Source: a virus (lineage: Duplodnaviria; Heunggongvirae; Uroviricota; Caudoviricetes). From it: a stretch of 35,248 nucleotides of DNA. The stretch lies in the IMG/VR virus record IMGVR_UViG_2563366961_000002, positions 1-35,248 of that record, one strand, 5' to 3'. The position numbers were made by a program, and so were the translations under genes. Numbering within the stretch: the first letter of the stretch is position 1; each line of letters begins with the position of its first letter. Below are positions 1 to 35,248 of this stretch, one piece after another. A model generated the notes under the pieces. The model was not told the origin of the DNA and did not search any database. It saw only the letters and a list, made by a program, of their open reading frames with translations.

Positions 1-91
1 GCTGTCGTTCTCAAAATCGGTGGAGCTGCATGACAAAGTCATCGGGCATTATCTGAACATAAAACACTATCAATAAGTTGGAGTCATTACC
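1..91 (+). mobile_element. IS1 3' terminal fragment (IRR end), truncated by window edge
   Basis: Exact reverse complement of 8080-8170, the IRR-proximal end of the complete IS1; ends ...GTTGGAGTCATTACC at 91. Confidence 0.9.
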
Positions 92-113
92 GACGCGCCG
101 AGCGTCTTTTTTT
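92..113 (+). terminator. putative rho-independent terminator
   Basis: GACGC-gccga-GCGTC hairpin followed by a T7 run. Confidence 0.4.
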
Positions 114-315
114 ATGTCGTAGGTCTGACTCACCCATTTTTTGGGCGTTGGTGTATAATCCAGCGCCTTTGTCAATCAATGGTGGCTCAGGCGGGGGCTT
201 CTTCGGAAGCGCCGGTATCCTTCAGAGCCGGTTACGCCAACCCTGTCTGGGCTACCACCAGCGAAATTGGCGTTTCCGGTGGTAGCGTAACCTGCTATCT
301 GAAGGAGGCTGCCAC

Positions 316-510
316 ATGCTGGCTACTACCCCTACCCAAAAACCGCAATTTATCTGGATTATCGCCGCAGTTCGCCGCGATTGCCCGACAATTACCGCCA
401 AAATTCATCATATTGCTGCCGAGTCTGAACGCGATGCTCGCCGTTCTCTGGTGCGCGATCACGTCTGCTTTTTTGCTGGTCGTATCCGCATGGAGGTGGC
501 ACATGATTAA
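316..510 (+). CDS. Icd-like (host cell division inhibitor-like) small protein of P4-type satellites
   Basis: 64-aa ORF; motif pattern QFIW..AAVRR..ERDARR..FFAGR recalled for Icd-like proteins; first gene of a coupled operon. Confidence 0.5.
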   Translation: MLATTPTQKPQFIWIIAAVRRDCPTITAKIHHIAAESERDARRSLVRDHVCFFAGRIRMEVAHD

Positions 511-721
511 AACCTACGATGTGCATATGGATCCCCTCGAACGCACAAGCCAGATCATCACACTGACAGAAGTGATTAACGACATTCTGGTGAGCAACTC
601 TCCCTCACGAGACGAAAGGCTGAAGGCGTTACTCGCGATATTGGATCTCGCCGTTCGTGACGTTCATTTCCTGCTGGAAGGTGGCGAAATGCCAGGAAAA
701 ACGGGGGCAACCAATGAATAA
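503..721 (+). CDS. hypothetical small protein (satellite early operon)
   Basis: ATG at 503 preceded by GGAGG at 492-496; overlaps stop of upstream ORF. Confidence 0.4.
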   Translation: MIKTYDVHMDPLERTSQIITLTEVINDILVSNSPSRDERLKALLAILDLAVRDVHFLLEGGEMPGKTGATNE

Positions 722-908
722 CTCAATTAATACCCCTCGCCTTACGTCCGCACTTCAATTAATCGAGCAAGCAGCGGCTGTCCTGGTTGCTGTCAGTCTT
801 TCGGCTGAAGAAATGGACGCTGCTGATGTCGTGGATGCGATTAAAGCGTGCTCATCTTTGGTTAACGATGCCCGTGCCGAGCTGGTAATTCTTGGGGGTG
901 AAAAATGA
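714..908 (+). CDS. hypothetical small protein
   Basis: Internal ATG of the 657-908 ORF (MNNSINTPRL...); start overlaps upstream stop. Confidence 0.4.
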   Translation: MNNSINTPRLTSALQLIEQAAAVLVAVSLSAEEMDAADVVDAIKACSSLVNDARAELVILGGEK

Positions 909-1168
909 ATATCAACTTAATTTATCGTCATCCGTGTGAGCTGGAAATTGAATCATTGCTGGGGCGTGAAGAGCCATATCCAGACTCATTCACTCCCGCA
1001 GATTGCGCGACTGAACGGCTTACCAGAGCGCGCACAGGTCTGGTTCATGTGATGAATGAGATTGTTCCCTCGGTGGGAGGGGAACAGGCGACAGTAATCA
1101 ATAGCTGGCTACAAAAAGTTACCTCCCTGATAGATATCGGTTTAATCGATGTGGAGAGTGCGAAATGA
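905..1168 (+). CDS. hypothetical protein
   Basis: 87-aa ORF; ATGA start/stop overlap with neighbours. Confidence 0.5.
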   Translation: MNINLIYRHPCELEIESLLGREEPYPDSFTPADCATERLTRARTGLVHVMNEIVPSVGGEQATVINSWLQKVTSLIDIGLIDVESAK

Positions 1169-1386
1169 CCAACATCCAGCTCATTGAAGCGCAATGTCGC
1201 ATCGAACAGGTTCAGACTGTTTTAGGGTTCTGGCTTGAAGGGGCCAGCCCCAGCAACAGAGACAAGTTAATGATTGGCGCGGTTATGTCACTGCTCAATG
1301 GCGTACCAGAAGCTATTCAGGAAGCGGACGAATTGTTGGGCAAATATGAGTTACAGAATCATTCAGGCGAGGCGAAACATGAATAA
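1165..1386 (+). CDS. hypothetical protein
   Basis: 73-aa ORF; ATGA overlap at both ends. Confidence 0.5.
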   Translation: MTNIQLIEAQCRIEQVQTVLGFWLEGASPSNRDKLMIGAVMSLLNGVPEAIQEADELLGKYELQNHSGEAKHE

Positions 1387-1981
1387 TTTCTTAACTTTCC
1401 ATGCAGAAGCAACGCCTGACGGCGTAAACATCATGTACCGCAGCAACGATGGCATGACAGAACGCGTTGAGGCCGTCTCATATATTGATGCCGTAAATCG
1501 TCTGGATGCCGGGGATTATGACGATAAACCAGATGAAGGTATGTCAATACATCTCGCTATTGCCGATGGCGGCAACCAGGGATATTTCGATTACACATCA
1601 CAGCATAACGTCATTATGTGGAGATGGCTGATCGCAACAGTATTCATGCTGGAAATGAGAGAGGAAAACGGCACTGTCAGCATCATTGATGATACTGGCA
1701 ATCCTTCCGAAGTGGCTGTTTATTCCAACGGCATCGTCGCCATGCCGCTGTATCCAGTAGCAGAGCGCCTCGCTATGGCAAACAACATTGAGGGCGCGAT
1801 GATAGAACGTTTTGGCATCGAGTCTGGCACAGAACGCGCCATCATTTTCTACAGAGCCATGATGGATGTGGAACAAGGAGCACTGACTCCATTTGGTCGT
1901 GAAACGCTTGCTGAACTTCACAACAGCTTTATAGCTGAACTGAATGAAAACGGCATGCCAGCGGAACCAGTGACGCACTGA
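1379..1981 (+). CDS. hypothetical protein (200 aa)
   Basis: Internal ATG at 1379 (MNNFLTFHAE...) overlapping upstream stop; upstream 35 codons of the ORF-track call look like read-through. Confidence 0.5.
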   Translation: MNNFLTFHAEATPDGVNIMYRSNDGMTERVEAVSYIDAVNRLDAGDYDDKPDEGMSIHLAIADGGNQGYFDYTSQHNVIMWRWLIATVFMLEMREENGTVSIIDDTGNPSEVAVYSNGIVAMPLYPVAERLAMANNIEGAMIERFGIESGTERAIIFYRAMMDVEQGALTPFGRETLAELHNSFIAELNENGMPAEPVTH

Positions 1982-1991
1982 GGATGGAGCC

Positions 1992-2333
1992 ATGATTACT
2001 AAAAATTTCCGACTGAATGCGCTGGCAAATAAGTATGCGTCGGCACTGTATAACCACATTACCTCCACCAGCGGCGGGGACTATTTCATGGTTGATGCGG
2101 ACGGCGAGGCCGTACGTGTGGAAATCGTCAATGGAGTAAAAGGCGTTCGCAGCCTGATCGATAGCTACACACTGGCAGCCATGAAAGTGTTCTACCCGCA
2201 GTGGGAAACCGTGGGGATCGAGCTTCTTGAGCGTTGCGTCACTAAGGACGGATTGACTGACGTCGGGCGTGAGATATGGCAAAGCATGGTTAATGACATG
2301 GGCGCAACTGTAGCGGGAGGTTCTCATGCGTGA
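1992..2333 (+). CDS. hypothetical protein (113 aa)
   Basis: ORF with GGAG upstream; part of same-strand operon. Confidence 0.5.
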   Translation: MITKNFRLNALANKYASALYNHITSTSGGDYFMVDADGEAVRVEIVNGVKGVRSLIDSYTLAAMKVFYPQWETVGIELLERCVTKDGLTDVGREIWQSMVNDMGATVAGGSHA

Positions 2334-2697
2334 AAATGCAGAAATGGCGCTTAGCTCCGCAATCGGAGAGCAGGTGGCAAAGATTGCTGGTGCTGTGTGG
2401 ATTCATAACCTTCATTCTACTGGTGAAGAGAAAATGGCAATTCAGACGCCAGAGGGACGCACCATTACTACATCTCTGAAGCCGTCAGATGTTTGTGATC
2501 TGATTTGCGCATTCATGTACCCAGCAATGAGGACTGTCCACGGCGATAAGTGGAAACTTGCGACAACCGCTGAATTTGATATGTGGCTAAACAATGATGG
2601 CATGCTGACTGATTACGGAATAACCAAGTGGCAGATGCTGGTTAGCCATATCGCAAACGCTATAGACCACGTGGGGTACGGTGATGCGAAACATTGA
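2326..2697 (+). CDS. hypothetical protein (123 aa)
   Basis: Start overlaps upstream stop; end overlaps primase start. Confidence 0.5.
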   Translation: MRENAEMALSSAIGEQVAKIAGAVWIHNLHSTGEEKMAIQTPEGRTITTSLKPSDVCDLICAFMYPAMRTVHGDKWKLATTAEFDMWLNNDGMLTDYGITKWQMLVSHIANAIDHVGYGDAKH

Positions 2698-5440
2698 TCT
2701 TATCCGTCAGGTTATCAGTGCGTCTGAAAACAACTGGCCTCATGTGCTGGGCTGCCTGAACATAAATGTCCCTGACTCTCCGCGCCGTCATGCTCCCTGC
2801 CCTGCATGTGGGGGCAAAGATCGATTCCGGTTCGATGACAACGGGCGCGGTAGCTTCATCTGTAATCAGTGCGGCGCTGGTGATGGGCTGGATTTAATTA
2901 AACGCGTAAATAACTGCGACACAACAGAGGCGGCGCTTCTTGCCGCTGATGTTCTGGGTATTGATTACCGGACAACGGAAACACCAGAAGCCACCAGCCA
3001 GAAACGGGAACAACTGGAAACCGAGCGCCAGCGACGCGAACAGGAGCGCCTGAAAAGGGCAGAGAAGGACGAACAACAAAGACGGGATACGTTTTCCCGT
3101 CAGTTTGATGACATGCGCAGAAAGGCTGTAAACGGCAAATCTGATTATCTGGTTGCGAAAGGGGTAGGTGATTTTACATTCCCCGTGTTGCCCGATGGAT
3201 CTCTGTTGCTGGCGCTGGTGGATAAATCCGGCGCAGTCACAGCAGCACAGACTATTACATCACATGGTGAAAAAAGACTCCTGACAGGTTCAGCAAAGCG
3301 GGGGGCATATCACGCCATAAACGCGCCAGAAACAACACAGAGCATCTTAATCGCAGAAGGGCTGGCAACGGCATTATCTGCCCATTTAATTCGTCCAGAG
3401 GCGCTGACAGTGGCGGCGATTGATGCCGGGAACCTGTTATATGTCGCCCAGGTACTGCGGGATAAATTTCCTTCAGCACAAATCATCATTGCTGCGGATA
3501 ACGACCACAGCGAAGGAAGACAAAACACGGGGAGAATAGCAGCAGAAAAAGCAGCTTTATCTGTTTCTGGATGGGTGGCATTACCCCCGACAGATCACAA
3601 AGCAGACTGGAATGATTACCACCAAAAACACGGCATTAAATGCGCCACAGAAGCGTTCAATAAGTCAATGTACCAACCACAGGGTAATGGCGTGAAACAT
3701 GAGCCACAGACCATTGAGGGAAGCGATTTTAAGGTTATGGATACCGACCCACTGAAACCAAGAATAGAAAGCCGCGAGGATGGTATTTATTGGGTATCTC
3801 CGAGAGCTGACAGCCAGAGTGGAGAAATCATCAATAACGAAAGCTGGTTATGTTCTCCGTTAAGCGTTATCGGTACTGGCAGAGACGATAAAGACCAGTA
3901 TCTCATTCTTCGCTGGCTGTCGTTTGGTTCTGAAACGCCGACAACCGCTGCCATTCCACTGGCTGATATTGGTGAACGTGAAGGATGGCGCACACTTAAA
4001 GCTGGTGGGGTAAATGTCACGACCAAAAGCAGCCTCAGAGCAATACTGGCAGACTGGCTACAACGCAGTGGCTCTCGTGAATTGTGGCGTGTTGCTCATG
4101 CCACTGGCTGGCAATGCGGAGCGTACATCATGCCTGATGGGGAAATCATCGGAACACCTGAAAATCCTGTGCTGTTCAGCGGGAGAAGCTCAGCCGCAGC
4201 CGGATATACCGTCTCAGGGAGCGCGAAAAGCTGGCGTGATAACGTGGCGCGTCTGGCCTTTGGTAACTATTCAATGATGACCGGGATCGGCGCAGCACTG
4301 GCAGCGCCATTGATTGGGCTGGTGGGCGCTGACGGGTTCGGCATTCATTTCTATGAGCAGTCGAGCGCAGGTAAGACCACCACGGCAAACGTGGCGAGCA
4401 GCTTATACGGCAACCCTGATTTACTGCGGCTGACGTGGTACGGAACCGCGCTGGGGCTGGCAAATGAGGCCGCCGCCCACAATGACGGACTAATGCCGCT
4501 TGATGAAGTTGGTCAGGGCGCTGATCCTGTCAGCGTTTCACAGTCTGCCTATGCGTTATTTAACGGTGTAGGGAAACTGCAAGGCGCTAAAGATGGTGGA
4601 AACCGGGATCTAAAACGCTGGCGTACAGTGGCAATCAGCACCGGAGAAATGGATTTAGAAACATTTATCGCTACTTCCGGGCGAAAAACCAAAGCCGGGC
4701 AACTGGTGCGACTGCTGAATATTCCGTTGAGTAAAGCAGTACGCTTTCACGATTACCAGAACGGAAAACAGCACGCAGACGCACTGAAAGACGCTTACCA
4801 GCATCACCACGGCGCGTCCGGGCGTGAGTGGATTAAATGGCTGGCAGACCACCAGCAACAGGCTATTAAAACCGTTCGTGACTGCGAAAGCAGATGGAGA
4901 AGCCTGATCCCATCCGATTATGGTGAGCAGGTTCACCGTGTAGCCGCGCGATTTGCCATTCTGGAGGCCGCATTGTTGTTAGGCGAGGTTGTAACAGGCT
5001 GGGATGCTCAGACATGCCGTGATGCGATACAGCACAGCTATAACGCATGGTTGCGCGAGTTCGGCACAGGTAACAAAGAGCATCAGCAGATTATTGAACA
5101 AACGGAGGCATTTCTTAATGCCTATGGGCTTAGCCGTTTTGCACCATTTCCATACAGCCCGGCAGATTTGCCCATCAAAGATTTAGCCGGATACCGTCAG
5201 CGTGGAGAACATGACGAAAGCCCAATGATTTTCTACACATTCCCGGCCACATTTGAAAAGGAGATCGCATGTGGTTTCAACGCAAAACAGTTTGCTGAAG
5301 TGTTGAAAAAAGCCGGGATGCTAACCCCACCAAACAGCGGTCGTGGATACCAAAGAAAATCACCACGTATTCAGGGACGACAAATAAACGTTTATGTACT
5401 CAATTACCAGCCAGGAGATTATAACTCATCTGAAGAATGA
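2681..5440 (+). CDS. satellite/island primase (Zn-ribbon + Toprim + C-terminal P-loop domain, P4 alpha-like)
   Basis: CPACGG..CNQCG zinc-ribbon; Toprim Glu (ILIAEG) and DxD (IIIAADNDH); P-loop-like SSAGKTT; 919 aa. Confidence 0.85.
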   Translation: MMRNIDLIRQVISASENNWPHVLGCLNINVPDSPRRHAPCPACGGKDRFRFDDNGRGSFICNQCGAGDGLDLIKRVNNCDTTEAALLAADVLGIDYRTTETPEATSQKREQLETERQRREQERLKRAEKDEQQRRDTFSRQFDDMRRKAVNGKSDYLVAKGVGDFTFPVLPDGSLLLALVDKSGAVTAAQTITSHGEKRLLTGSAKRGAYHAINAPETTQSILIAEGLATALSAHLIRPEALTVAAIDAGNLLYVAQVLRDKFPSAQIIIAADNDHSEGRQNTGRIAAEKAALSVSGWVALPPTDHKADWNDYHQKHGIKCATEAFNKSMYQPQGNGVKHEPQTIEGSDFKVMDTDPLKPRIESREDGIYWVSPRADSQSGEIINNESWLCSPLSVIGTGRDDKDQYLILRWLSFGSETPTTAAIPLADIGEREGWRTLKAGGVNVTTKSSLRAILADWLQRSGSRELWRVAHATGWQCGAYIMPDGEIIGTPENPVLFSGRSSAAAGYTVSGSAKSWRDNVARLAFGNYSMMTGIGAALAAPLIGLVGADGFGIHFYEQSSAGKTTTANVASSLYGNPDLLRLTWYGTALGLANEAAAHNDGLMPLDEVGQGADPVSVSQSAYALFNGVGKLQGAKDGGNRDLKRWRTVAISTGEMDLETFIATSGRKTKAGQLVRLLNIPLSKAVRFHDYQNGKQHADALKDAYQHHHGASGREWIKWLADHQQQAIKTVRDCESRWRSLIPSDYGEQVHRVAARFAILEAALLLGEVVTGWDAQTCRDAIQHSYNAWLREFGTGNKEHQQIIEQTEAFLNAYGLSRFAPFPYSPADLPIKDLAGYRQRGEHDESPMIFYTFPATFEKEIACGFNAKQFAEVLKKAGMLTPPNSGRGYQRKSPRIQGRQINVYVLNYQPGDYNSSEE

Positions 5441-5463
5441 GCTTCTTCATGTGCGTAGAAAAG

Positions 5464-5580
5464 GTGTTGGTTCAGTTGGTTCAGTTGGTTCAATTTGTAA
5501 AGAGTATTGTTTTATAAGGATTTTATTCTTTTTATTGAACCAACACTGAACCAACAACACGGTATTTTGAACCAACACAA
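5464..5580. repeat. iteron origin-like module A
   Basis: 3 tandem TTGGTTCAG/A at 5467-5493, about 40 bp AT-rich spacer, 3 inverted TGAACCAAC at 5536-5577; immediately 3' of primase. Confidence 0.7.
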
Positions 5581-5897
5581 TGTGACTGAATTGATGCGCA
5601 CAACACCTGGCTGGCATCAGAGAGTGTTTTACGAGACTTTCGTAAAATCCTGTGTACAAGGGCGTGACGTTTTTGAAAGTGAGCACTACGAAATTTTCGT
5701 AGTTCAGAAAACAGCCTCTGAGAAGTTGTTATGCCTGTTCAGCAAACCATCCGCATAGCTGATCGCGAATCAAATTACCAATGGAGCCAGAAGCAAGGGC
5801 AGAACTGAAAAGCGCCTGCCGTGAAGAGTAATGCGACACCATAAATATAGTTTTTAGAGTCCATAAAAAACCTGTCAAAACCTGACACACAGAACGA

Positions 5898-5929
5898 TGC
5901 CACCAGCTACTGAGCGGTGGCATTTTTTT
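5898..5929 (+). terminator. putative rho-independent terminator
   Basis: TGCCACC-loop-GGTGGCA hairpin followed by T7. Confidence 0.5.
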
Positions 5930-6024
5930 GTGCTATTTGTTTCATATTTTGCAATTACGATGATGAATATTGCGATTTGTGAAACTATAATAACTGTTGT
6001 TTTATACAGTTCTAAGGGGGCGTT

Positions 6025-6186
6025 ATGGCTATTTCAGTAAAGCCGGTATTGATAAGTGAGAAGCAAATGGAAGCGATAAAGAAAATTCAGGAAGAGCAGC
6101 GTAAAAAATCAGGAATTGGAGTAGCGCCAACTCTGCATGAAATTGCACGAGGGTTAATAGATAAGGCGCTGGCAGGCTGTATGTGA
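6025..6186 (+). CDS. small ribbon-helix-helix-like DNA-binding protein (53 aa), absent from ORF track
   Basis: ATG 12 nt after AAGGGGG; MAISVKPVLISEKQMEAIKK... beta-strand then two helices. Confidence 0.45.
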   Translation: MAISVKPVLISEKQMEAIKKIQEEQRKKSGIGVAPTLHEIARGLIDKALAGCM

Positions 6187-6202
6187 AAATGGATGGCATC
6201 GC

Positions 6203-6664
6203 ATGGAACTAAAATTTATTGATAACCCTGTGCGATTACAGGCCTTTCTTAACGAGCCAGGCAATACCGAAAATATTGTTGAGCCGGGGCACACGTACTA
6301 CATCAAGCCTGATGCGGTATATCTCGGCATCTACGAAGGATTAGTGCTGGCTGGCGTTCATGAAGTGCGTAACTTCTGGCATAGCGTTGTTGAATGCCAT
6401 GCGGTGTACGACCCCGGATTCCGTGGTGAATATGCACTGCAAGGACATCGATTATTCTGCAAATGGCTTCTCGAAAACTCACCATTCCTTAACAGCATTA
6501 CCATGGTTCCTGACACCACGAAATACGGACGGGCAATTATCCGTTTGCTTGGCGCTACCCGTGTTGGTCATCTTGATGATGCTTATATCAGATGTGGTAA
6601 ACCCGTCGGCGTAACGCTTTATCAGTTAACTCGGCAACAATATAAGGAATTCAGCGAATGTTAA
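6203..6664 (+). CDS. hypothetical protein (153 aa)
   Basis: ORF whose stop overlaps next start (ATGTTAA). Confidence 0.5.
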   Translation: MELKFIDNPVRLQAFLNEPGNTENIVEPGHTYYIKPDAVYLGIYEGLVLAGVHEVRNFWHSVVECHAVYDPGFRGEYALQGHRLFCKWLLENSPFLNSITMVPDTTKYGRAIIRLLGATRVGHLDDAYIRCGKPVGVTLYQLTRQQYKEFSEC

Positions 6665-7335
6665 TTACCCATATAGCTTATAAACATCTCAATCGTGCCG
6701 TATACGAAAAAGGCGGTGATGGTGGTGCCTCTAAAGCTCAGGCGAAGGCCCAGCAGCAGGCAATTGATTTGCAGCGCGAGCAGTGGAATACGGTGATGAA
6801 TAATCTCAAGCCGTATGCAGAAGTCGGATTGCCTGCTTTACAACAACTACAAGGACTGATGACTCTGGAAGGGCAGAATAAAGCCGCGAATGATTTCTTT
6901 GGTTCTGGTTTATATAAAACACAGGCAGATCAGGCCCGTTATCAGAACCTTGTCTCAGCAGAAGCTACCGGGGGGCTTGGCTCAACAGCTACCAGTAACC
7001 AGTTATCTTCCATTGCGCCCATGCTTTATAACAATTGGCTCAGTGGGCAAATGCAAAATTATGGAAACCTGCTAAATGTCGGGATGAATGCGGCATCAGG
7101 GCAGGCAACAGCAGGGCAAAACTACGCCAATAATACCGGACAACTCTTGCAGGGGCTTGGCGCTATTCGTGCAGGTCAGGCGCAGCAGCCATCCAGTCTT
7201 GCGCGTGGTATTGGTGGGGCGGCATCAGGCGCTTTAGCGGGTGCGCAACTTGGTTCCGTTGTTCCGGGTATAGGTAATGTCGCCGGGGCTATTGGTGGTG
7301 GGCTTATTGGTCTTGTTGGGGGGCTTGGATTCTAA
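6658..7335 (+). CDS. Gly/Gln-rich protein with hydrophobic Gly-zipper C-terminus
   Basis: AAGGA upstream; C-terminus GIGGAASGALAGAQLGSVVPGIGNVAGAIGGGLIGLVGGLGF; stop overlaps next start (TAATG). Confidence 0.55.
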   Translation: MLITHIAYKHLNRAVYEKGGDGGASKAQAKAQQQAIDLQREQWNTVMNNLKPYAEVGLPALQQLQGLMTLEGQNKAANDFFGSGLYKTQADQARYQNLVSAEATGGLGSTATSNQLSSIAPMLYNNWLSGQMQNYGNLLNVGMNAASGQATAGQNYANNTGQLLQGLGAIRAGQAQQPSSLARGIGGAASGALAGAQLGSVVPGIGNVAGAIGGGLIGLVGGLGF

Positions 7336-8079
7336 TGGCGACATGGCAACTTGGCGGGCTGCCTAGCATGGCACCGCAAAATGATAATGCTCCTCGTTCT
7401 TCCGTTCCTCAGCCTGTGCAGTATCAGCAGCAGCCAAACGTAGGTTTAATGGCGCTACAGGGGCTAAGAGGCGTTGCTGAGATTAATCAGCAGGCACGTC
7501 AACAACAGCGTAAAGCAGAGTTTCAGAAAGCATATGCCGGGGCTTTTGAGTCTGGAGACAGAAACAAAATGCGCAGTCTTATTTCTGAGTATCCAGAAGA
7601 ATTTGAAAGCGTTCAGAAAGGGATGGGCTTTATTGATGACGACCAGAGAAATTCTATTGGTCATCTTGCGACTAGTGCTCAAATCGCATCTTCGCTCGGA
7701 ACTGGGGCATTTGGAAAATTCATAGCAGATAACGAAGATGAAATGCGTCGTTTGGGAATTTCTCCTGAGTCTGTTGCCGAAATGCATGTTAATGATCCAC
7801 AGGGATTCCAGCGGCTTGCTGGTAGTATGGCACTGTTTTCTCTCGGTCATGAGAAGTACTTCGATATCAAAGATCGAATGGAAGGTCGGGATATTGAGCG
7901 TGGCAAGTTGGCAGAGACGATCCGCAGCAATCAAGCCGGAGAAGCACTTCAGGCGAGAGGGCAGGATATTAGCCGAGCAAATGCGTTAACGTCAGCATAT
8001 GCACCAACAGCCGCAATGCAGAATTACAATCAATACGCGCAAATGTTAAAGGCGGATCCAGAGGGGGCTGCGGCATTTG
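7335..8079 (+). CDS. hypothetical protein, 3' end interrupted by IS1
   Basis: Frame runs into IS1; stop codon TAA 8082-8084 is supplied by IS1 terminal bases. Confidence 0.5.
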
Positions 8080-8094
8080 GGTAATGACTCCAAC

Positions 8095-8598
8095 TTATTG
8101 ATAGTGTTTTATGTTCAGATAATGCCCGATGACTTTGTCATGCAGCTCCACCGATTTTGAGAACGACAGCGACTTCCGTCCCAGCCGTGCCAGGTGCTGC
8201 CTCAGATTCAGGTTATGCCGCTCAATTCGCTGCGTATATCGCTTGCTGATTACGTGCAGCTTTCCCTTCAGGCGGGATTCATACAGCGGCCAGCCATCCG
8301 TCATCCATATCACCACGTCAAAGGGTGACAGCAGGCTCATAAGACGCCCCAGCGTCGCCATAGTGCGTTCACCGAATACGTGCGCAACAACCGTCTTCCG
8401 GAGCCTGTCATACGCGTAAAACAGCCAGCGCTGGCGCGATTTAGCCCCGACATAGCCCCACTGTTCGTCCATTTCCGCGCAGACGATGACGTCACTGCCC
8501 GGCTGTATGCGCGAGGTTACCGACTGCGGCCTGAGTTTTTTAAGTGACGTAAAATCGTGTTGAGGCCAACGCCCATAATGCGGGCAGTTGCCCGGCAT
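8095..8598 (-). CDS. insB: IS1 InsB (expressed as InsAB' by frameshift)
   Basis: 167-aa ORF overlapping insA 3' end in the -1 frame. Confidence 0.9.
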
Positions 8599-8792
8599 CC
8601 AACGCCATTCATGGCCATATCAATGATTTTCTGGTGCGTACCGGGTTGAGAAGCGGTGTAAGTGAACTGCAGTTGCCATGTTTTACGGCAGTGAGAGCAG
8701 AGATAGCGCTGATGTCCGGCGGTGCTTTTGCCGTTACGCACCACCCCGTCAGTAGCTGAACAGGAGGGACAGCTGATAGAAACAGAAGCCAC
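8517..8792 (-). CDS. insA: IS1 InsA
   Basis: 91-aa ORF with the InsA zinc-finger N-terminus [16 protein letters not shown]. Confidence 0.9.
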
Positions 8793-8856
8793 TGGAGCAC
8801 CTCAAAAACACCATCATACACTAAATCAGTAAGTTGGCAGCATCACCGGGTGATTA

Positions 8857-18665: not shown

Positions 18666-18836
18666 ATGAGCGAAGCTACAGAAAAGAAAAGACAACCACG
18701 CACTTGCTTTCATATTCCTGATGAAGTATTTCAGGTGTTGTTTAAAGAAGCCAGAAGTAAACGTATCACTGTTACAGATTACATTCTTGATATGTTGAAA
18801 AGAGAGGCTGAAACACTCTCAAATAAAAGCAAGTGA
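18666..18836 (+). CDS. RHH (CopG/Arc-like) DNA-binding protein
   Basis: Internal ATG after GAAGGAG; RTCFHIPDEVFQVLFKEARSKRITVTDYILDML. Confidence 0.5.
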   Translation: MSEATEKKRQPRTCFHIPDEVFQVLFKEARSKRITVTDYILDMLKREAETLSNKSK

Positions 18837-18889
18837 TTTTTATCACCATAGTAGCGCCATAGAGCGTGATTACATCAAGGAGATTTTTA

Positions 18890-19582
18890 ATGATTAACCA
18901 ACTAACTTTTACAAAACACTATGACACGTTTGATAATATATCAAAGATTTATTCTGATAAATTCCCTCAAGGAAAAGATTTAGATCTATTACATATTGTG
19001 CTTTATTTTCGATTCCTTAGTTATCAGGAAAACAACCTTAATTGTTATGAAAGTCACGAAACATTAGCTAAGATTTTTAAGTCTTCACCATCAACAATTA
19101 AACGTAAGATAAACGATCTTAAAGAGATGGGATTATTAGAAACATCCCCACATCCTGATCCGTATATTTCATCTTTGATTTACAATGCTCTCCCTCTCAC
19201 AGATGCACATATTACTCCCCCAGGAGAATCATCACTCTCTGATCTTTCTGAGGCAGAAGAAGCACAGGAACAACCTAAAGGCCATAAACAGCCTTCTTTT
19301 GATGTTCTTGATGATGATTGGGATACGCCTTTACCCTGGGAGACGGAAGAAACACCTGTTTCATCAAGTGAAAAGGTAGCTAATGATAATGAGGAGGATG
19401 TGTTAGAGAATTTTGCCTCTCTTATCATCCAGGAGAAACACAAAAGAACAGGAGGGGCATCATTTATAGAATTTGCAAATTCACTAGCTTGTAGATACGG
19501 GCTAAAACGACCAAATGGTATTGAGGCATATTTTTCTAAGCATTACCCAAATGTATACGAAGACTTTGATATTCCCTTTTAA
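18890..19582 (+). CDS. winged-helix protein, candidate replication initiator
   Basis: ATG after AAGGAG; wHTH-like LAKIFKSSPSTIKRKINDLKEMGLL; acidic C-terminal half. Confidence 0.5.
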   Translation: MINQLTFTKHYDTFDNISKIYSDKFPQGKDLDLLHIVLYFRFLSYQENNLNCYESHETLAKIFKSSPSTIKRKINDLKEMGLLETSPHPDPYISSLIYNALPLTDAHITPPGESSLSDLSEAEEAQEQPKGHKQPSFDVLDDDWDTPLPWETEETPVSSSEKVANDNEEDVLENFASLIIQEKHKRTGGASFIEFANSLACRYGLKRPNGIEAYFSKHYPNVYEDFDIPF

Positions 19583-19598
19583 AAAGTAAGGAGGACTA

Positions 19599-19877
19599 TT
19601 GATACAGTATTTAATAAAAAGCAAAGTAGACAGAATTCAGTGTAACGACACAGGAAAACGCATCTACGAAACGCTTGCTTACCTCTATAAAGGAAAGCCA
19701 ACACCGCTAAAATATAGCGATGTGTTACATCGAGCAGGTTGCTCTGAGTCAGGTTTAAAATTCTGGCTGAAACAGCTATCAAATTTCGGTGTTATTGAAA
19801 TGAAAGAGCTGTCTTTCTCTACATTTAATCTCAAAAGACTAGATAAAGAAATAGAATTCATCTATTCCACTCTCTAA
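19599..19877 (+). CDS. hypothetical wHTH-like protein
   Basis: TTG start 5 nt after AAGGAGG. Confidence 0.45.
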   Translation: MIQYLIKSKVDRIQCNDTGKRIYETLAYLYKGKPTPLKYSDVLHRAGCSESGLKFWLKQLSNFGVIEMKELSFSTFNLKRLDKEIEFIYSTL

Positions 19878-20009
19878 AATCTCTCTATGTAATTAAAATA
19901 TAAAAGGAAAACATTATTATGATAGTAGCTATGTATTGGTTATTGTTCTTTCTCACGTTAGAAGCATATTTCGGGGTGTTTTCCTTTAAAAGAAAAGGAA
20001 AAGTAAATT

Positions 20010-20420
20010 ATGGCAAAAAGAAAAAACAACGTTGTTAAGAAAATCGGTGATTCAGCTTCTCTTCTAAGTAAACCTAAATCTATTCTAAAACGTAAAGACT
20101 TTAAAGAGCTAGTTACGCTCACCAAGCATAATAGCGCCCCTGGCGAATGGAAAACAGAGATCATAGAACATTCTCCCTCTGTGCCTTGTGGAGATGAATA
20201 TATCGCCTTACAAGAAATCTTATCTTCAACACCTGGCGTGTTCTGGAAACCTAAAAAAAGAAAAGAGTATATCGTTGATAGCTCTGATTTACGCAAATAC
20301 CAGATTTTAGGATTTGAAGATTATAATCACTACGTTGGTTATCTCGCCACAAATGGCCTAAATAATTTAGTTCCTGAATTCCAGATTTTAGATAATGCAG
20401 ATCACTATGGAGACTTTTAA
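20010..20420 (+). CDS. hypothetical protein (136 aa)
   Basis: ORF with AAAGGAAAAG upstream. Confidence 0.5.
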   Translation: MAKRKNNVVKKIGDSASLLSKPKSILKRKDFKELVTLTKHNSAPGEWKTEIIEHSPSVPCGDEYIALQEILSSTPGVFWKPKKRKEYIVDSSDLRKYQILGFEDYNHYVGYLATNGLNNLVPEFQILDNADHYGDF

Positions 20421-20421
20421 T

Positions 20422-20760
20422 ATGAACAAAAACACGTATGACACAATTTACTCACTAATTAATTATTATGAGGATGATTACCTCCTGCCTTTAAACCGCG
20501 CTGAACTTGAAGCATACAAAGAAAACACGCCAGCGGCACTAAATGAGGCGTTTAAACACTGGGATTTAGCTGTGAATGCCTTTGAGCACCTCTCTAAGCG
20601 TGTAGAGATGCTCTGTAAGCGCGAAAACGCATACCTGACAGCCGATCAGGTATGGGAATTATCAAACTGGATAGAAGATATTGAATCTGATGTTCGCTAT
20701 GTGGGAGATGGACTTGTTGAACTAGCGCAACGCTTAGGCGCTACTATCACAGAAGAATAA
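20422..20760 (+). CDS. hypothetical protein (112 aa)
   Basis: ATG 8 nt after GGAG, immediately after upstream stop. Confidence 0.5.
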   Translation: MNKNTYDTIYSLINYYEDDYLLPLNRAELEAYKENTPAALNEAFKHWDLAVNAFEHLSKRVEMLCKRENAYLTADQVWELSNWIEDIESDVRYVGDGLVELAQRLGATITEE

Positions 20761-20789
20761 AAAAAGCAACAAAAAAGTTGTAAAATATC

Positions 20790-20818
20790 TTGACATTCCA
20801 TCTATTGTATGTTAATAT
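20790..20818 (+). promoter_or_regulatory. sigma70-type promoter
   Basis: TTGACA, 17-bp spacer, TAATAT. Confidence 0.5.
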
Positions 20819-21010
20819 AATTATATAGGGGTGATTATTTTTCCTTTATTGGTTCGATATTAAAAATTCTTCCTGTCATTAAAGGGGAGTAAAATCTCCG
20901 CTCCCCGCTTCTTCTCCTCCTTAAGTAAATACTGTGCCATTATACCTCTTTGTTATGCATACATCTTGGAGTATGCATAACATAGGGTAATTACATAGGT
21001 ATGAGTTAAT

Positions 21011-21042
21011 AAAAGGCGGCTTTAAATGCTGCCTTTTATTTT
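21011..21042 (+). terminator. putative rho-independent terminator
   Basis: AAAAGGCGGC-loop-GCTGCCTTTT hairpin then ATTTT. Confidence 0.45.
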
Positions 21043-21104
21043 GCCCGTTATACAACTTAAAAGTTGTATTTCTTACTTTAAACAAGGTAACAAGGTTTAT
21101 ATAA

Positions 21105-21317
21105 ATGTTGCTCTTAAATGATAAAGAGCAAATCATCAAGTATAAAGATGAAATGCTGAAAATTAATCCACAAATTACCGAAATGGTAGCTAAATACGCT
21201 GGGTGTTCTGTCGAGGAAGTAGAAAGATGTGTTGAAAAATATTTTTCTCCTTCTTCTCCGTCTACACCTTCCCTTAATGAATTAATCAAATTAAAAGCTA
21301 AGGAGATTACTAAATGA
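21105..21317 (+). CDS. hypothetical small protein
   Basis: 70-aa ORF; stop overlaps next start. Confidence 0.45.
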   Translation: MLLLNDKEQIIKYKDEMLKINPQITEMVAKYAGCSVEEVERCVEKYFSPSSPSTPSLNELIKLKAKEITK

Positions 21318-21676
21318 TTATTGATTTAGACACTCTGTTTCCAGTTCGAAAGACTTTCACGGATATTGTAAGTTATTGTACTGATCCGTTTGCCTCTGTA
21401 GAAAGCAAGGTTTTTGCTTCTCTTCCTGCTGATGTTGAGTGCGGCGACTTGATCACCAGCACTGGCGCTAAATATGAATCAGGAGATGATATTTATGTTG
21501 TTATGAGTGAATTTGTAACGGCTGGAGAAAACAAGCCTGTAGATGTGCTACGTAGCAATGCTGGGCTTGTATGCATCAAAGCTGATGCGCTGAATGCTGT
21601 AAGTGAAGCAGCAAAAACAGCATTAATTAAAAAAGGCTTTCAGCTTGAAGGGTTCCATTCTGTTTTCACTTCTTAA
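21314..21676 (+). CDS. hypothetical protein, possibly head-associated
   Basis: 120-aa ORF immediately upstream of the capsid-like gene. Confidence 0.45.
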   Translation: MIIDLDTLFPVRKTFTDIVSYCTDPFASVESKVFASLPADVECGDLITSTGAKYESGDDIYVVMSEFVTAGENKPVDVLRSNAGLVCIKADALNAVSEAAKTALIKKGFQLEGFHSVFTS

Positions 21677-21694
21677 TAAAAGGAATAATAATAA

Positions 21695-22723
21695 ATGATT
21701 CTAGGTAATGATTACGTTGATTTAGCTCCTCTGTTCTCTGCGCATAGCACTAGAAATTATCTACTTTCTACTCTCGACTTCACTGATCCGGTGGGCGTTA
21801 GTTCTCATAAAGTAGCTGTTTCCCAGCTTGTCGAAAGCAACGAATCTCTCTTTAACAAAGAGACAAGCCGTTTTAGTTCTGAACACAATGTTACTAAGCG
21901 AGAACAAGGTAAAGAATGGCTGATCGAAATCCCTTACTTCCTGCGTGAAGATGTGATCCGTCCTTCTGATGTTCAAGGCAAGCGTAAGCCTGGCACTGAT
22001 TTTCAGGAAACACTCACTGATATTTATGCTGACTATGTTGCTAAACACCACGTAGCGTATCAGCGTACAAAAGAGAGCGTGCTGGCTGCATCTCTGTTTA
22101 GCGGTAAAACTTACACGCCTAAAACTGATGATGTTCTTATCGAGTGGAGCAAGCTGTTTAACGTATCAGCTATGAAAGCCACTGTGAACGCTTCCAGCAC
22201 TGACACCACGAAGATTTTTAAAGAATTTGATCAGATTGCTACTGACATTATCGAAAAAGCACAGAGTCAGGCGGCGGCTGTAGAGCGAATTGTTGTTTTC
22301 TGTAAGCCGGAAGCCTTCTCTGCAATTCGATTCTCTGCTGGTATGGCAAACGCATTCCAGTATGTAAGCCCACTGGAAGAGGGGAACGTTGTGTATCAGC
22401 GTCGTGACCTGCTGCCAGGGGTGACAGCGTTCACTATTCCAGGAACTAACATTGATGTTGTTAAACTGGTAGATCCGCTACACCTGGCACATATGACCGC
22501 AGACGCTGTAGCTGTGCCTAAATTCTCTAAGGGTAGCGGAATTTATACCAACATCTACGGGGCTGCTTCCAGCACCTTTGAACTGATTAATGCCGCTCCT
22601 GCTGAGGTGTATAGCTATAGCTATGAATCTTCTCGTGGTGATGCTGTTAACGTTGTTACAGAGAATAGCCAGATGGTGGTAAACCACGGTGTAGGCTTCT
22701 CCGTTCAAATCACTGTTAAATAA
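21695..22723 (+). CDS. putative major capsid-like protein (342 aa)
   Basis: Strong terminator directly downstream; size and weak local resemblance to lambda gpE-type capsid proteins (from memory). Confidence 0.45.
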   Translation: MILGNDYVDLAPLFSAHSTRNYLLSTLDFTDPVGVSSHKVAVSQLVESNESLFNKETSRFSSEHNVTKREQGKEWLIEIPYFLREDVIRPSDVQGKRKPGTDFQETLTDIYADYVAKHHVAYQRTKESVLAASLFSGKTYTPKTDDVLIEWSKLFNVSAMKATVNASSTDTTKIFKEFDQIATDIIEKAQSQAAAVERIVVFCKPEAFSAIRFSAGMANAFQYVSPLEEGNVVYQRRDLLPGVTAFTIPGTNIDVVKLVDPLHLAHMTADAVAVPKFSKGSGIYTNIYGAASSTFELINAAPAEVYSYSYESSRGDAVNVVTENSQMVVNHGVGFSVQITVK

Positions 22724-22741
22724 TATTTTAACGTGTAATAG

Positions 22742-22777
22742 AGGCGTGGCGTGAATAACACGCTTCGCCTTTTTTTA
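22742..22777 (+). terminator. rho-independent terminator
   Basis: AGGCGTGGCGTG-aataa-CACGCTTCGCCT followed by T7. Confidence 0.6.
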
Positions 22778-22809
22778 TTTATTTTTAAATTTTGAGAGGT
22801 GATTAAAAT

Positions 22810-23013
22810 ATGGAAGTGATTTTGAAATCAAAAAATGGTGTACACGTACATTTAGATGCTAATGATTCTAGAGGATTGTTAAATCTGAAATATCTCTGTT
22901 CTCTTTTAGATGTTCCCTATGAAGGAGTAAAAGCCCGTATGTTCAGATTAAACGAGAGTATTGATCAGGCTCTACACCATTTCTTAAGCAAAGAAGGTGG
23001 TAAAAATGATTAA
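22810..23013 (+). CDS. hypothetical small protein (67 aa)
   Basis: ORF with GAGAGGTGA upstream. Confidence 0.45.
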   Translation: MEVILKSKNGVHVHLDANDSRGLLNLKYLCSLLDVPYEGVKARMFRLNESIDQALHHFLSKEGGKND

Positions 23014-23027
23014 TAAGGGGATTTTAA

Positions 23028-23921
23028 ATGTTAGAAATTAACACTTCTAAAATTAAGAACACAGTAACATTTAGTGTAGATAAAGACAGCTTGAAAAAAG
23101 CGAAAGACTCTATTACAGGCTTAAAGGAATTTGCAGAGAATATCAAGCCAGCTAAGTTAAGGTTTGATAATGTCACTAAAGGCTATAAGAAAGCACAAAG
23201 TGAAGTAGACAAGATTGCTCAACAGAAAGCTAAAGCCGAAAAACAGAATCAAAGAGTACAAGCTGCCGCAGCAAGAGCACAGGCAAGGCAACAGCAACAA
23301 ATAGCAGCACGTAAAGAGAAAGCAGAATTAAAACTCCTCGATGTGTCAAGCTCTATCAGTGCAATGCACCGTCTCTCTGTAGCTGAACAATACAAAGCTA
23401 TTGCACAGGCTAGAGAAATTGCCCTCCAATATGAAAGAGGCGCTATTAGTCTGGCACGTATGAATAGCCAGATGAAACGCTTACAACAGCAACAACGTAA
23501 GATTAATGGCAACAGAAAAGCACAATTAGCCCCCGTTAAGGGAGGATCAGGGAATTCCGCCACTATGGGCGCTCTGTTATTTGGAGGCGCTACGGCTGCT
23601 GCTGGCGTGATGGCTGTTAGTAAAGCGTCGGAGTTTGTTAGTAGCAGTTTCGCTAACGCAGAGACCCAAGGGGAGCTAATCCAACGTGCAAGGCTTGGCG
23701 GTGTAGACGTTAACCAGATGTATAATATTACAGAATGGGCGTATAGAAACGGCGTTGACTCTATGATGGGTGATCAAGGGGCTAGGAAATACCTGGATCA
23801 GATGAAAGATGTTAGGGAACGTGCCGCAAAATCCTACAGTGAAGCTGAATTGGTGAAAGACAAGAAAACCGGAAAATCTGAATGGAAAGGCGGTGATAAT
23901 GCTATTAATGAACTTCTAAAC
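23028..23921 (+). pseudogene. N-terminal fragment (298 codons) of a 609-aa coiled-coil protein disrupted by IS2
   Basis: Reading frame continues in phase across the IS2 target duplication to 25258-26193. Confidence 0.7.
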
Positions 23922-23932
23922 TGGATTTGCCC

Positions 23933-24838
23933 CTATATTTCCAGACATCTGTTATCACTTAACCCATTACAAGCCCGCTGCCGCAGATATTCCCGTGGCG
24001 AGCGATAACCCAGCGCACTATGCGGATGCCATTCGTTATAATGCTCGAACGCCTCTGCAAGGTTCTTTGCTGCCGTTAACCCGTCTGGTTTGGGCATGAT
24101 ACTGATGTAGTCACGCTTTATCGTTTTCACGAAGCTCTCTGCTATTCCGTTACTCTCCGGACTCCGCACCGCCGTGTTCTTCGGTTCAAGTCCCAACATC
24201 CGGGCGAACTGGCGTGTTTCATTAGCCCGGTAGCATGAACCATTATCCGTCAGCCACTCCACTGGAGACGACGGAAGATCGTTGCCGAAGCGGCGTTCCA
24301 CCGCTCCCAGCATGACGTCCTGTACTGTTTCACTGTTGAAGCCGCCGGTAGTGACCGCCCAGTGCAGTGCCTCACGATCACTGCAGTCCAGCGCGAACGT
24401 GACACGCAGTCTCTCTCCGTTATCACAGCAGAACTCGAACCCGTCAGAGCACCATCGCTGATTGCTTTCTTTCACGGCCACTCTGCCTGTATGTGCCCGT
24501 TTCGATGGCGGTACAGCAGGTTTTCGCTCAAGCAACAGCGCATTCTGGCGCATGATCCGGTAAACACGTTTGGCATTGATCGCAGGCATACCATCAAGTT
24601 CTGCCTGTCTGCGAAGCAGCGCCCATACCCGACGATAACCATACGTGGGCAGCTCTCCGATAACATGGTGTATACGGAGAAGCACATCCGTATCATCAGT
24701 GTGACGACTGCGGCGGCCATCCATCCAGTCATCGGTTCGTCTGAGAATGACGTGCAACTGCGCACGCGACACCCGGAGACAACGGCTGACTAAGCTTACT
24801 CCCCATCCCCGGGCAATAAGGGCGCGTGCGCTATCCAC
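23933..24838 (-). CDS. insD: IS2 OrfB (InsD) DDE transposase
   Basis: 301-aa ORF overlapping orfA end; retroviral-integrase-like catalytic domain. Confidence 0.85.
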
Positions 24839-25161
24839 TTTTTTGCCCGTCCATATTCAACGGCTTCTTTGAGGAGTTCATTTTCCATCGTTTTCTTGCC
24901 GAGCAGGCGCTGGAGTTCTTTAATCTGCTTCATGGCGGCAGCAAGTTCAGAGGCAGGAACAACCTGTTCTCCGGCGGCGACAGCAGTAAGACTTCCTTCC
25001 TGGTATTGCTTACGCCAGAGAAATAACTGGCTGGCTGCTACACCATGTTGCCGGGCAACGAGGGAGACCGTCATCCCCGGTTCAAAGCTCTGCTGAACAA
25101 TTGCGATCTTTTCCTGTGTGGTACGCCGTCTGCGTTTCTCCGGTCCTAAGACATCAATCAT
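24796..25161 (-). CDS. insC: IS2 OrfA (InsC)
   Basis: [25 protein letters not shown]... HTH protein, 121 aa. Confidence 0.85.
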
Positions 25162-25252
25162 CTGCTCTCCAATGACTAGTCTAAAAACTAGTATTAAGAC
25201 TATCACTTAAATAAGTGATACTGGTTGTCTGGAGATTCAGGGGGCCAGTCTA

Positions 25253-26193
25253 TAAACATCGGTGTTATTAACAAAAGCGACCTTAAAAAATTTGCTGATA
25301 ATCCGGCTGGATTAATTTCTAAGGCTGTTAATGGAATGATGAAAAAAGGGTTTTCAGACTCCCAAATTGGACAACGTTTAGAAGACCTGGGCGATGATTT
25401 GATGCTTACGTCAAAATATTGGCAACGTTCCGTTAAAGATGTACAAGAAAGTATTAATCAGCAAAAAGCCTCTGGAAAATGGCTAACAGAAACACAGCAA
25501 GACTCTATTGTTAAATTCAGAGAACTAAACAGACAGCTTTCACAGCTTTCTGATGCAAGACAAGTAGCATTCGTAGACGGCTTTATGAAATCTCTCGATC
25601 CAAAAGTAACGGAAGAGTTTATGAAAAACCTTTCTAATCTCACTCCGTATTTTACGAAGCTGGGAGAAGCTACAGGAAGTCTCTTTGAAGCTATTATGAA
25701 GATTGTAAACTGGTTTAATCGTAATGATGATAAGACAGATGCTATTCAGAAAAATATGGGTGATGCACCGCCATTAAGCAATGAAGGGATGAAACAGAAT
25801 CTTTCTAATCTCGTTCCTAATCAATATAAAGGCGCTGGCACTGCAACAACTACACCTGATAATAGTCATTCTCTCTTTAACACAATTAAGGGATTGCTTT
25901 TCGATGATAATTCTTCTGTGTCAGATGTAAAAATGTCAGTCAATGAAGCACCGATAACCAATCTCAAACAGGGTGCTTTAAATAATCTTGCAATGACAAC
26001 TCCAGCTTATAATTTATCTCCTGTGTTTAATCTGAATCCTACATTTGAAGTGGTAACAGAAGTGCCGCTAACTATCGAATCAGACACCGGACGATTGAGC
26101 GATTATGTGGATTTTACAGCGAGAGCAAGTCGGGATAGCTTCTTGAAATCATTAACATTAACCAGCTTATCAGGACAATCCAACGGCGGGTAA
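25253..26193 (+). pseudogene. C-terminal fragment of the IS2-disrupted 609-aa protein
   Basis: In phase with 23028-23921 through the duplicated TAAAC. Confidence 0.7.
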
Positions 26194-26227
26194 TTCCCGC
26201 CATAACATTACAAGGAAAATTATTATT

Positions 26228-26941
26228 ATGGCGACCGCCGGGATTTTAACCATACGTGCAGCAAATACTCCAGAACAACACGTTCAGGCTGTTTACAAAG
26301 CAGAACAAGATATAAATTCTACAAAAAACGAAAATAGCAAAGCTAATAAAACAAAAGGAGAGAACGGATTTGCTATTGTTACCAGTGGCTTGGCATCTTC
26401 TGGTAATGACGTTTATGAAAATTATATGGCACTGGCCTTTGATAGTGTTGACGATGTGAACGTGAGACGTTCGGCAGATGTCACAAGCTACCCCGTAGAA
26501 AATGGTGCTACTGTGTCTGATCACGTTCAAATTAAAAACAATAAGTTCTCTCTTAAAGGGCGTATCACTGAAACACCGATTAAAAGCGATCCTGGCTTGT
26601 TAAAGAGTGCAGGGGTGAACGGGAACAGAAGATCATTAGCTATAGACTACTTGAATCAGATTATGGACAGTAGACAGCCTTTTCTTCTTGTTACAGAAAA
26701 TAAAACTTTTGAGAACGTTGTTTTAACAGGCATCGAATACACAGAAGAGGCAAGCGAATCCCTGGTATTTGATCTTAGCTTTGAACAAATAAGATTAGTT
26801 TCTTATGGTACTGTAAACACTGTAGCTATCAAAACACAGCCATCTAAGAACATCGGGGCGAATATGAAAAAACGTGTTAACACTGAAAAATCAAGTAGTG
26901 AAGGTGAAGACACTATTACTCCTGCCTTTAAACAGGAATAG
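26228..26941 (+). CDS. hypothetical protein (237 aa), possibly structural
   Basis: ORF following the coiled-coil gene on the same strand. Confidence 0.5.
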   Translation: MATAGILTIRAANTPEQHVQAVYKAEQDINSTKNENSKANKTKGENGFAIVTSGLASSGNDVYENYMALAFDSVDDVNVRRSADVTSYPVENGATVSDHVQIKNNKFSLKGRITETPIKSDPGLLKSAGVNGNRRSLAIDYLNQIMDSRQPFLLVTENKTFENVVLTGIEYTEEASESLVFDLSFEQIRLVSYGTVNTVAIKTQPSKNIGANMKKRVNTEKSSSEGEDTITPAFKQE

Positions 26942-27022
26942 CCGTAAATGCCTCTAAAACGCTCTGTAACGATGTAATTATAAAAGAGGCTACCAATCTA
27001 TGTTGAAGCCTCTTTATTGCGT

Positions 27023-28357: not shown

Positions 28358-29054
28358 AGAAAATGATAATTTTTTCTATAAGATTCAATCAATTAGTAAT
28401 GGTCGTAGGTGATGGCATTAACACGAGATTAATCGAGTGTTTTACTCCTCTTATCGGCACCATTTAAATCAATAAGTTATCTCACATTTAAGTAAACTAC
28501 GTTCTCCTCTTGTGCCTTTGATTTTGCTCGCGTGCGCGGTGAAATGCCTGACTGAAAGGTGAGCATATCGACGAACCATTTCGAGAGTTTCCCATCCGCT
28601 CATTTTTAAGTGCAAGCAGGGAAACACCGGACTAAACCAATCAGCTGTTCGAAAATGGCAAGCGGATTAATATGCCATGGCGGCTTTGAGCCGCACATAT
28701 GGGGTGTGGCAAGCCTGATGGATGTTGCTGTGCTTGTGGTGGCGTCTTTGCTGGTCTGGTTGTTGGTTAATCGCGAAAATCATTATGCCAGAGGAATACC
28801 ACAGGACGTTCAGGTTTTGCATAAAAAAGCCCACCATTAAGGTGTGCAAAAGGAATGATTTATATTCTCTGAGAGAAACATTACATTTCTCCTTGTCACT
28901 TCTAACATAAAAATATGGAGAAATAATGGAGCTTATATTAATTGGCGATTAGGTAACCATGTGGTTATACAAAACAATACAGTTCTTTACATTTGCCTTG
29001 TTTTATGAATACTCCTGAAGAGGTGTACAACATAATTAAACAAACAGGGTAAAT

Positions 29055-35154: not shown

Positions 35155-35248
35155 GGTGATGCTGCCAACTTACTGATTTAGTGTATGATGGTGTTTTTGA
35201 GGTGCTCCAGTGGCTTCTGTTTCTATCAGCTGTCCCTCCTGTTCAGCT
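35155..35248 (+). mobile_element. IS1 5' terminal fragment (IRL end), truncated by window edge
   Basis: GGTGATGCTGCCAACTTACTGATTTAGTG... equals reverse complement of 8754-8847. Confidence 0.9.

Follow-up and report, generated by a model that had tools for sequence, protein, structure and literature searches.

Loss of DNA beside a resident IS1 is a long-known phenomenon and textbook behaviour of insertion sequences. Adjacent deletions of IS1 were reportedly described in the gal region by Reif and Saedler in 1975, and intramolecular, deletion-type transposition of IS1 is said to be the subject of a paper by Turlan and Chandler in EMBO J in 1995. Deletions produced by recombination between directly repeated IS copies are also a feature of IS-rich Shigella and Yersinia genomes. 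The same type of deletion has been recorded in the genomes of the long-term evolution experiment, and missing target-site duplications commonly result from either adjacent deletion or IS-IS recombination (PMC11708052). Adjacent deletions at IS1 and Tn9 have one end precisely at the IS terminus, while the distance to the other end varies (reviewed in PMC9330008).

The locus considered here is a degraded mobile island within a stretch of 35,248 nucleotides, referred to below as the window (the whole stretch of DNA that was analysed). An internal IS1 in the window lacks a flanking target-site duplication. Comparison with related genomes indicates that this state very probably arose through an IS1-associated deletion that followed an ancestral simple insertion. 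The duplication would be missing because a later loss took about 0.67 kb from the upstream gene together with the copy on the IRR side.

The internal IS1 and the ejection-protein genes around it

The internal IS1 lies between two genes of a phage-type ejection cassette. The element and its neighbours have the following window coordinates.

8080-8847, minus strand: complete IS1 (IS1A-type), 768 bp, recognised from the sequence, the terminal repeats and Pfam
8080-8102: IRR of the internal IS1, sequence GGTAATGACTCCAACTTATTGAT
8825-8847: IRL of the internal IS1, GGTGATGCTGCCAACTTACTGAT; the reverse complement ends at 8847
8517-8792, minus strand: insA, zinc ribbon and HTH (Pfam Zn_ribbon_InsA and HTH_Tnp_IS1)
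8095-8598, minus strand: insB' DDE frame (Pfam DDE_Tnp_IS1)
6203-6664, plus strand: DUF2824 gene (PF11039, PHROG 651)
6658-7335, plus strand: P22 gp7-type ejection protein gene (PF25688 P22_gp7, E = 1.9e-72)
7335-8084, plus strand: truncated P22 gp20-type DNA-ejection gene (PF16928 Inj_translocase, E = 3.6e-59)
8857-10962, plus strand: intact P22 gp16-type DNA transfer (ejection) protein, 701 aa (PHROG 770, E = 3.6e-159)

The length of about 768 bp and the imperfect inverted repeats of about 23 bp that characterise the IS1 family are both found exactly, and the element matches PF03811, PF12759 and PF03400. The A6C motif for the -1 frameshift that joins insA to insB' is present as TTAAAAAAC on the minus strand at approximately 8531-8545. 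Orthologous copies in the complete genomes AF3, SCU-172 and MSB1_4I bear the RefSeq name 'IS1A family transposase, programmed frameshift'. The 9-bp (sometimes 8-bp) target duplication typical of the family is absent from the window and present in the ancestral allele described below; since its loss is secondary, it is no argument against the identification as IS1. The nine bases to the left of the element are CGGCATTTG and those to the right are GGGTGATTA, with no common repeat longer than 1 nt, so that the original prediction was correct in describing an internal IS1 devoid of a target-site duplication and in the flanks that it gave.

It was also right that the upstream open reading frame is ended by IS1 bases. 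The native part of the truncated gp20-type gene comprises 248 codons and ends at 8079; the final Gly codon (G + GG) and the TAA stop at 8082-8084 are completed by IS1 bases 8080-8084. Against PHROG 917 (E = 5.4e-88) the truncated product aligns to positions 1-263 of 509, whereas the intact protein of ECONIH1, whose locus is free of IS1, aligns to positions 1-504. The window copy thus falls short of the full length of about 470 aa, with ~225 of 473 residues missing from its C-terminal end, and is a pseudogene. The cassette as a whole is a set of P22-type ejection-protein genes in which gp20 has been halved. The DUF2824 gene is presumably the counterpart of gene 14, whose position it holds in the P22 gene order.

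The downstream gene does begin 10 bp after IS1, at 8857, as had been claimed, but its different phase is native and not a result of the rearrangement: in intact loci the gp20 stop and the gp16 start overlap as TAATG. The description of the two interrupted frames as Gly-rich holds only weakly, with 9.2% and 7.7% Gly in the named frames, and the truly Gly-rich frame by composition is the gp7-like one (16.4% Gly). In AF3 the downstream gene carries the RefSeq name 'P22-gp16 family phage DNA ejection protein'. A promoter scan of the region gave the IRL promoter, which points into insA, as the sole promoter-like site, and none reading outward from IS1 to gp16. The gp16 gene retains its reading frame and nine native upstream bases and has probably been cut off from upstream transcription by IS1. 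Searches of the phage collection returned matches to at most 18% of the query, located at the gp20/gp16 boundary in Sf6- and P22-like phages, and no close relative of the gp20 interior was found in that collection.

The ejection cassette closes an island (window 92-10962, compared with L005 4785-17626 from SCU-172 and with L008) that runs in the order thrW, integrase, small HTH protein, antirepressor, DUF4222, ash, a 919-aa TOPRIM/DUF927 primase, a gap of about 0.6 kb, and DUF2824-7-20-16, with no adjoining capsid, portal or tail genes. Among complete E. coli genomes, 234 contain at least 80% of the 8-kb left segment at a single location. The island may be a prophage remnant that has become fixed or, alternatively, a satellite-like element. 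The further proposition, that it is a conserved satellite-like element with its own ejection proteins and more than the remnant of a P22-like prophage, is unlikely, and a literature search on satellites with ejection proteins yielded nothing specific.

A second phage-like block occupies approximately 18800-28400 of the window, between the ejection cassette and yagU. It is described here from the AF3 RefSeq annotation only and could represent a further remnant or a satellite that encodes a capsid. Besides an HTH protein and a gene interrupted by IS2, its annotated features include the following.

21695-22723: 342-aa major capsid protein (AF3 RefSeq annotation)
26228-26941: 'baseplate' protein (AF3 RefSeq annotation)
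27023-28357, minus strand: second tyrosine integrase (AF3 RefSeq annotation)

Alleles of the locus in related genomes

For comparison with IS1-free homologues, 500 bp from each side of IS1 were joined into a 1,000-bp query and searched in 5,426 complete E. coli genomes. The joined query was covered to at least 80% in 300 genomes, and in all 30 matches listed it spans 1,667 bp and so exceeds its own length by 667 bp. In ECONIH1 (L001) window position 8079 corresponds to 3500 and window position 8848 to 4168, with 667 bp between them and breakpoints exact to the base. These 667 bp, absent from the window, code for the last ~225 of the 473 residues of the gp20-type protein. At window position 8079 the intact DNA continues with CGGCAGCGG, whereas the window continues with GGTAATGAC. 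Both window flanks align to ECONIH1 L001 in order and on the plus strand, i.e., they are collinear and in the same orientation. The alignment of the flanks to IS1-free loci, which had been suggested as a check, therefore places 8079 and 8848 not next to each other but 667 bp apart, and the uninterrupted arrangement that would speak against the original prediction was absent. Of its two proposed causes, IS1-mediated deletion or inversion in place of simple insertion, deletion is borne out, while inversion is not needed for flanks that are collinear.

Two positions beside the internal IS1 are central to the comparison of alleles.

8079-8080, no strand: novel deletion junction, gp20 interior directly on the terminal IRR base (from sequence comparison)
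8848-8856, plus strand: surviving copy of the ancestral 9-bp duplication GGGTGATTA, which holds the native gp20 stop and adjoins IRL (from relatives)

The left junction (8079/8080) is covered in 0 of the 5,426 complete E. coli genomes and has no exact match in genome_contigs or metagenome_contigs. The right junction (IRL/gp16) likewise gave no match in an exact-pattern scan of genome_contigs, a collection that is weak for strain-level alleles because it holds one genome per species. In the complete genomes AF3, SCU-172 and MSB1_4I, however, the same IRL/gp16 junction, IRL followed directly by GGGTGATTAATG, is found exactly as in the window, and it is the IRR side that differs. The DNA flanking this junction is 99.8-100% identical among the window and these relatives; together with the base-identical junction, this indicates common descent.

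The allele of SCU-172 and MSB1_4I retains what the window has lost. In both genomes gp20 reaches its native 3' end, in the arrangement ...CACTATG GGGTGATTA / IRR-IS1-IRL / GAATAAACG. A second, inverted IS1 reads, as its reverse complement, GAATAAACG / IRR-IS1-IRL / GGGTGATTA ATG(gp16). The two duplications have been exchanged, so that one copy carries GGGTGATTA/GAATAAACG and the other GAATAAACG/GGGTGATTA. Between these inverted IS1 copies a 23.4-kb segment (gp16 ... ecpC' ... ykgO/M/R) is itself inverted (SCU-172 L005 17627-42576; MSB1_4I L007 and L004), the product of a later recombination with an IS1 of opposite orientation that lies near a LysR gene. In the IS1-free ECONIH1 locus GGGTGATTA is single-copy (L001 4168-4176). 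Its presence on both split IS1 alleles and as a single copy in IS1-free loci establishes an ancestral simple insertion with a normal 9-bp duplication.

What is missing from the window is the copy of GGGTGATTA on the IRR side together with the adjoining 660-667 bp of gp20; the junction of IRL with GGGTGATTA is retained. Measured against the SCU-172 allele the loss amounts to 669 bp, and against the ECONIH1/1517k allele to 676 bp, with CAGCCAG accounting for the difference. A deletion of these 7 bp in SCU-172 and MSB1_4I shifts the frame of the last ~15 codons of gp20, while ECONIH1 and 1517k are free of it. Given this frameshift in the sister genomes, gp20 may already have decayed to a pseudogene when the IS1-adjacent deletion occurred. 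In AF3 the order is uninverted and both IS1 copies are present, and 10,683 bp are missing from the same IRR terminal base, a loss independent of that in the window. Losses on the IRR side are nested and all start at the terminal IS1 base: 0 in SCU-172 and MSB1_4I, 669-676 bp in the window and 10,683 bp in AF3. The old junction is shared, the loss proceeds from the other terminus of an intact IS, and the flanks are collinear. A fixed IRL junction combined with nested losses at the last IRR base is the classic hallmark of adjacent deletion by IS1.

Other IS copies in the window and its relatives provide further points of comparison.

1-91, plus strand: 3' end (IRR) of another IS1, in opposite orientation and identical to the internal copy
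35155-35248, plus strand: 5' end (IRL) of another IS1, in opposite orientation and identical to the internal copy; truncates ecpC
23922-25252, minus strand: complete IS2, 1,331 bp, splitting a hypothetical phage gene

The IS1 ends of opposite orientation that the original prediction placed at both window edges are thus present, at 1-91 and 35155-35248. The IRR of the left-edge copy abuts GACGCGCCG within an ash-family gene (window 92-721), with window position 92 corresponding to SCU-172 L005 8979; no IS1 occurs at this site in SCU-172, MSB1_4I or 1517k. Judging from this insertion at its left edge and from the frameshifted gp20 of the sister genomes, the island was probably already decaying. 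The right-edge junction is that of an IS1 copy, designated 'B', in AF3 and SCU-172 (AF3 L006 17512-18279), and truncates the usher gene ecpC (ORF 32871-35168, minus strand). In AF3 copy 'B' is flanked by CCATCATCC and TAAGTTTTA, with no duplication, and it replaces 2,346 bp relative to K-12, comprising the 5' part of ecpC, ecpB, ecpA and matA/ecpR. The common-pilus operon has therefore been inactivated by another IS1-associated deletion.

The AF3 copy beside the LysR gene, IS1_y (L006 20984-21751), shows a very small adjacent deletion: 31 bp of SCU-172 (L005 18395-18425) are absent from its IRL side, among them one copy of the GAATAAACG duplication. A variant at IS1 position 34, near the IRR, was considered as a mark of recombination in SCU-172 and dropped: since AF3 IS1_y is without it, the variant is private to SCU-172 and MSB1_4I.

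The IS2 serves as a positive control. It is bounded by a perfect 5-bp duplication, TAAAC, at 23917-23921 and 25253-25257, and the same insertion is found in AF3, SCU-172 and MSB1_4I. The intact duplication means that simple insertions in the window do show their duplications.

Proposed mechanism and alternative explanations

The proposed history has two steps. In the first, which the comparison of alleles establishes, IS1 entered the TAATG overlap of gp20 and gp16, in the prophage-like island at thrW, by ordinary transposition with a 9-bp duplication of GGGTGATTA. In the second, whose outcome is visible in the alleles and whose mechanism is inferred, the IRR end of the same IS1 would have attacked a gp20 site 0.67 kb upstream in an intramolecular, deletion-type transposition. 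The loss of 669-676 bp consists of 660-667 bp of gp20 and the IRR-side duplication copy. IS1 and the IRL/gp16 junction stayed in place, leaving an intact IS1 with non-matching flanks, a gp20 that ends in Gly and a stop, and an untouched gp16. Transpositional adjacent deletion is somewhat favoured as the route over recombination with a second IS1, since from the demonstrated ancestor it takes a single event instead of two. Because the products of the two routes are identical, sequence alone cannot separate them.

Recombination with a second copy is possible, though not probable. On this account another IS1 of the same orientation stood in gp20 at 8079/8080 with its own duplication, and RecA-dependent recombination between the two copies deleted one IS1 together with 0.67 kb. 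The end product would be the one observed. IS1 is very abundant, with at least 40 match pieces in each of the three closest genomes, IS1-IS1 recombination has demonstrably occurred at this locus in the SCU-172/MSB1_4I inversion, and IS-IS recombination is a frequent cause of missing duplications (PMC11708052). A single base also bears on this question. The internal IS1 differs from the orthologous copy of the three relatives only at 8586, a synonymous position in a Thr codon of insA, which is A in the window and T in every one of the six IS1 copies examined from AF3, SCU-172 and MSB1_4I. Among E. coli IS1 copies an A at this site is common (3,905 records with the best copy in the band of at least 99% identity over the 61 bases around the site), which makes a chimeric or converted IS1 plausible and fits the product of recombination between two copies. 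The same difference could, however, equally stem from gene conversion or recombination with another copy, from mutation, or from polishing noise such as a mixed-copy consensus of collapsed repeat reads. Moreover, this account needs two events where one is enough, and no IS1 was found at the 8079 site in the 5,426 complete genomes or in exact scans of genome_contigs and metagenome_contigs. AF3 would require yet another independent insertion and recombination ending at the same IS1.

The remaining explanations dispense with a deletion by either route. An assembly artefact, in which two IS1 copies (at 8079 and at gp20/gp16) or some other arrangement really exist and the assembly path through a collapsed repeat skipped a segment, is quite improbable. 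The window begins and ends within IS1, like contigs broken at repeats, its left junction is unique to it, and the one-base IS1 difference could be a mixed-copy consensus. However, the contig crosses the full IS1 and the full 1,331-bp IS2 with its correct duplication, which suggests long-range information, and three complete genomes confirm the right junction. The collinear arrangement also makes biological sense, and the complete genome AF3 has an analogous deletion; even in the case of an artefact, the junction of 8079 with IRR would be a real new IS1 junction. Loss of the duplication through an inversion, whether by recombination or by inversion-type intramolecular transposition involving an IS1 at the window edge, is highly improbable, although both edge copies are opposite in orientation to the internal IS1 and such an event is present in SCU-172 and MSB1_4I. 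If the swap is undone by reasoning, the left-edge copy gives the flanks CGGCGCGTC / GGGTGATTA and the right-edge copy gives CGGCATTTG / GGATGATGG, neither of them a duplication. Inversion-type transposition from the gp20/gp16 copy would set IRL, not IRR, against gp20. Furthermore, gp7, the truncated gp20 and gp16 are collinear with the intact loci. Practically no weight can be given to a simple insertion whose duplication decayed or was never made, for which the absence of a repeat is the only point. It is refuted by the 667 bp that separate the flanks in intact genomes (all 30 matches listed of 300), and the flanks, 98-100% identical to those of relatives, give no sign of local decay.

Significance and comparison with described systems

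For annotation, the internal IS1 should not be entered as a simple insertion, and the gp20-type gene should be treated as a pseudogene. More broadly, IS1 actively reshapes the thrW-ykg region, with at least three deletions and one inversion across close relatives, including the loss of ecpR-ecpA-ecpB. The IRR terminus at this locus may act as a recurrent deletion generator, in which case SCU-172/MSB1_4I, the window and AF3 would mark a progressive erosion of the island. The locus also shows cleanly, in natural isolates, why the duplications of IS copies can be missing, and it is a caution for assemblers and for programs that call IS boundaries from duplications.

Compared with the P22 genes 7, 20 and 16 and the DUF2824 gene upstream of them, the cassette in the window is alike in gene order, protein families and the TAATG overlap. 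Unlike in P22, these genes stand in a prophage-like island without adjoining capsid or tail genes, and gp20 is reduced to 248 of 473 residues.

The IS1-IS1 inversion of SCU-172 and MSB1_4I involves the same ancestral gp20/gp16 IS1, and the split halves of its duplications mimic an absent duplication. There, however, a segment was inverted and both duplication copies survive, whereas in the window a segment was lost and nothing was inverted. Recombination between directly repeated IS copies resembles the window in leaving a single hybrid IS with mismatched flanks and in losing the intervening DNA. It differs in needing a second IS1 at 8079, of which the genomes and contig collections searched contained no trace. 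The closest likeness is to the known IS1 adjacent deletion, in which the IS also stays intact and in place, the loss begins exactly at one terminus, one old junction is kept, the distal end varies by lineage, and no duplication remains. The window departs from that system in one respect, namely that the event is seen as an end product in natural isolates only.
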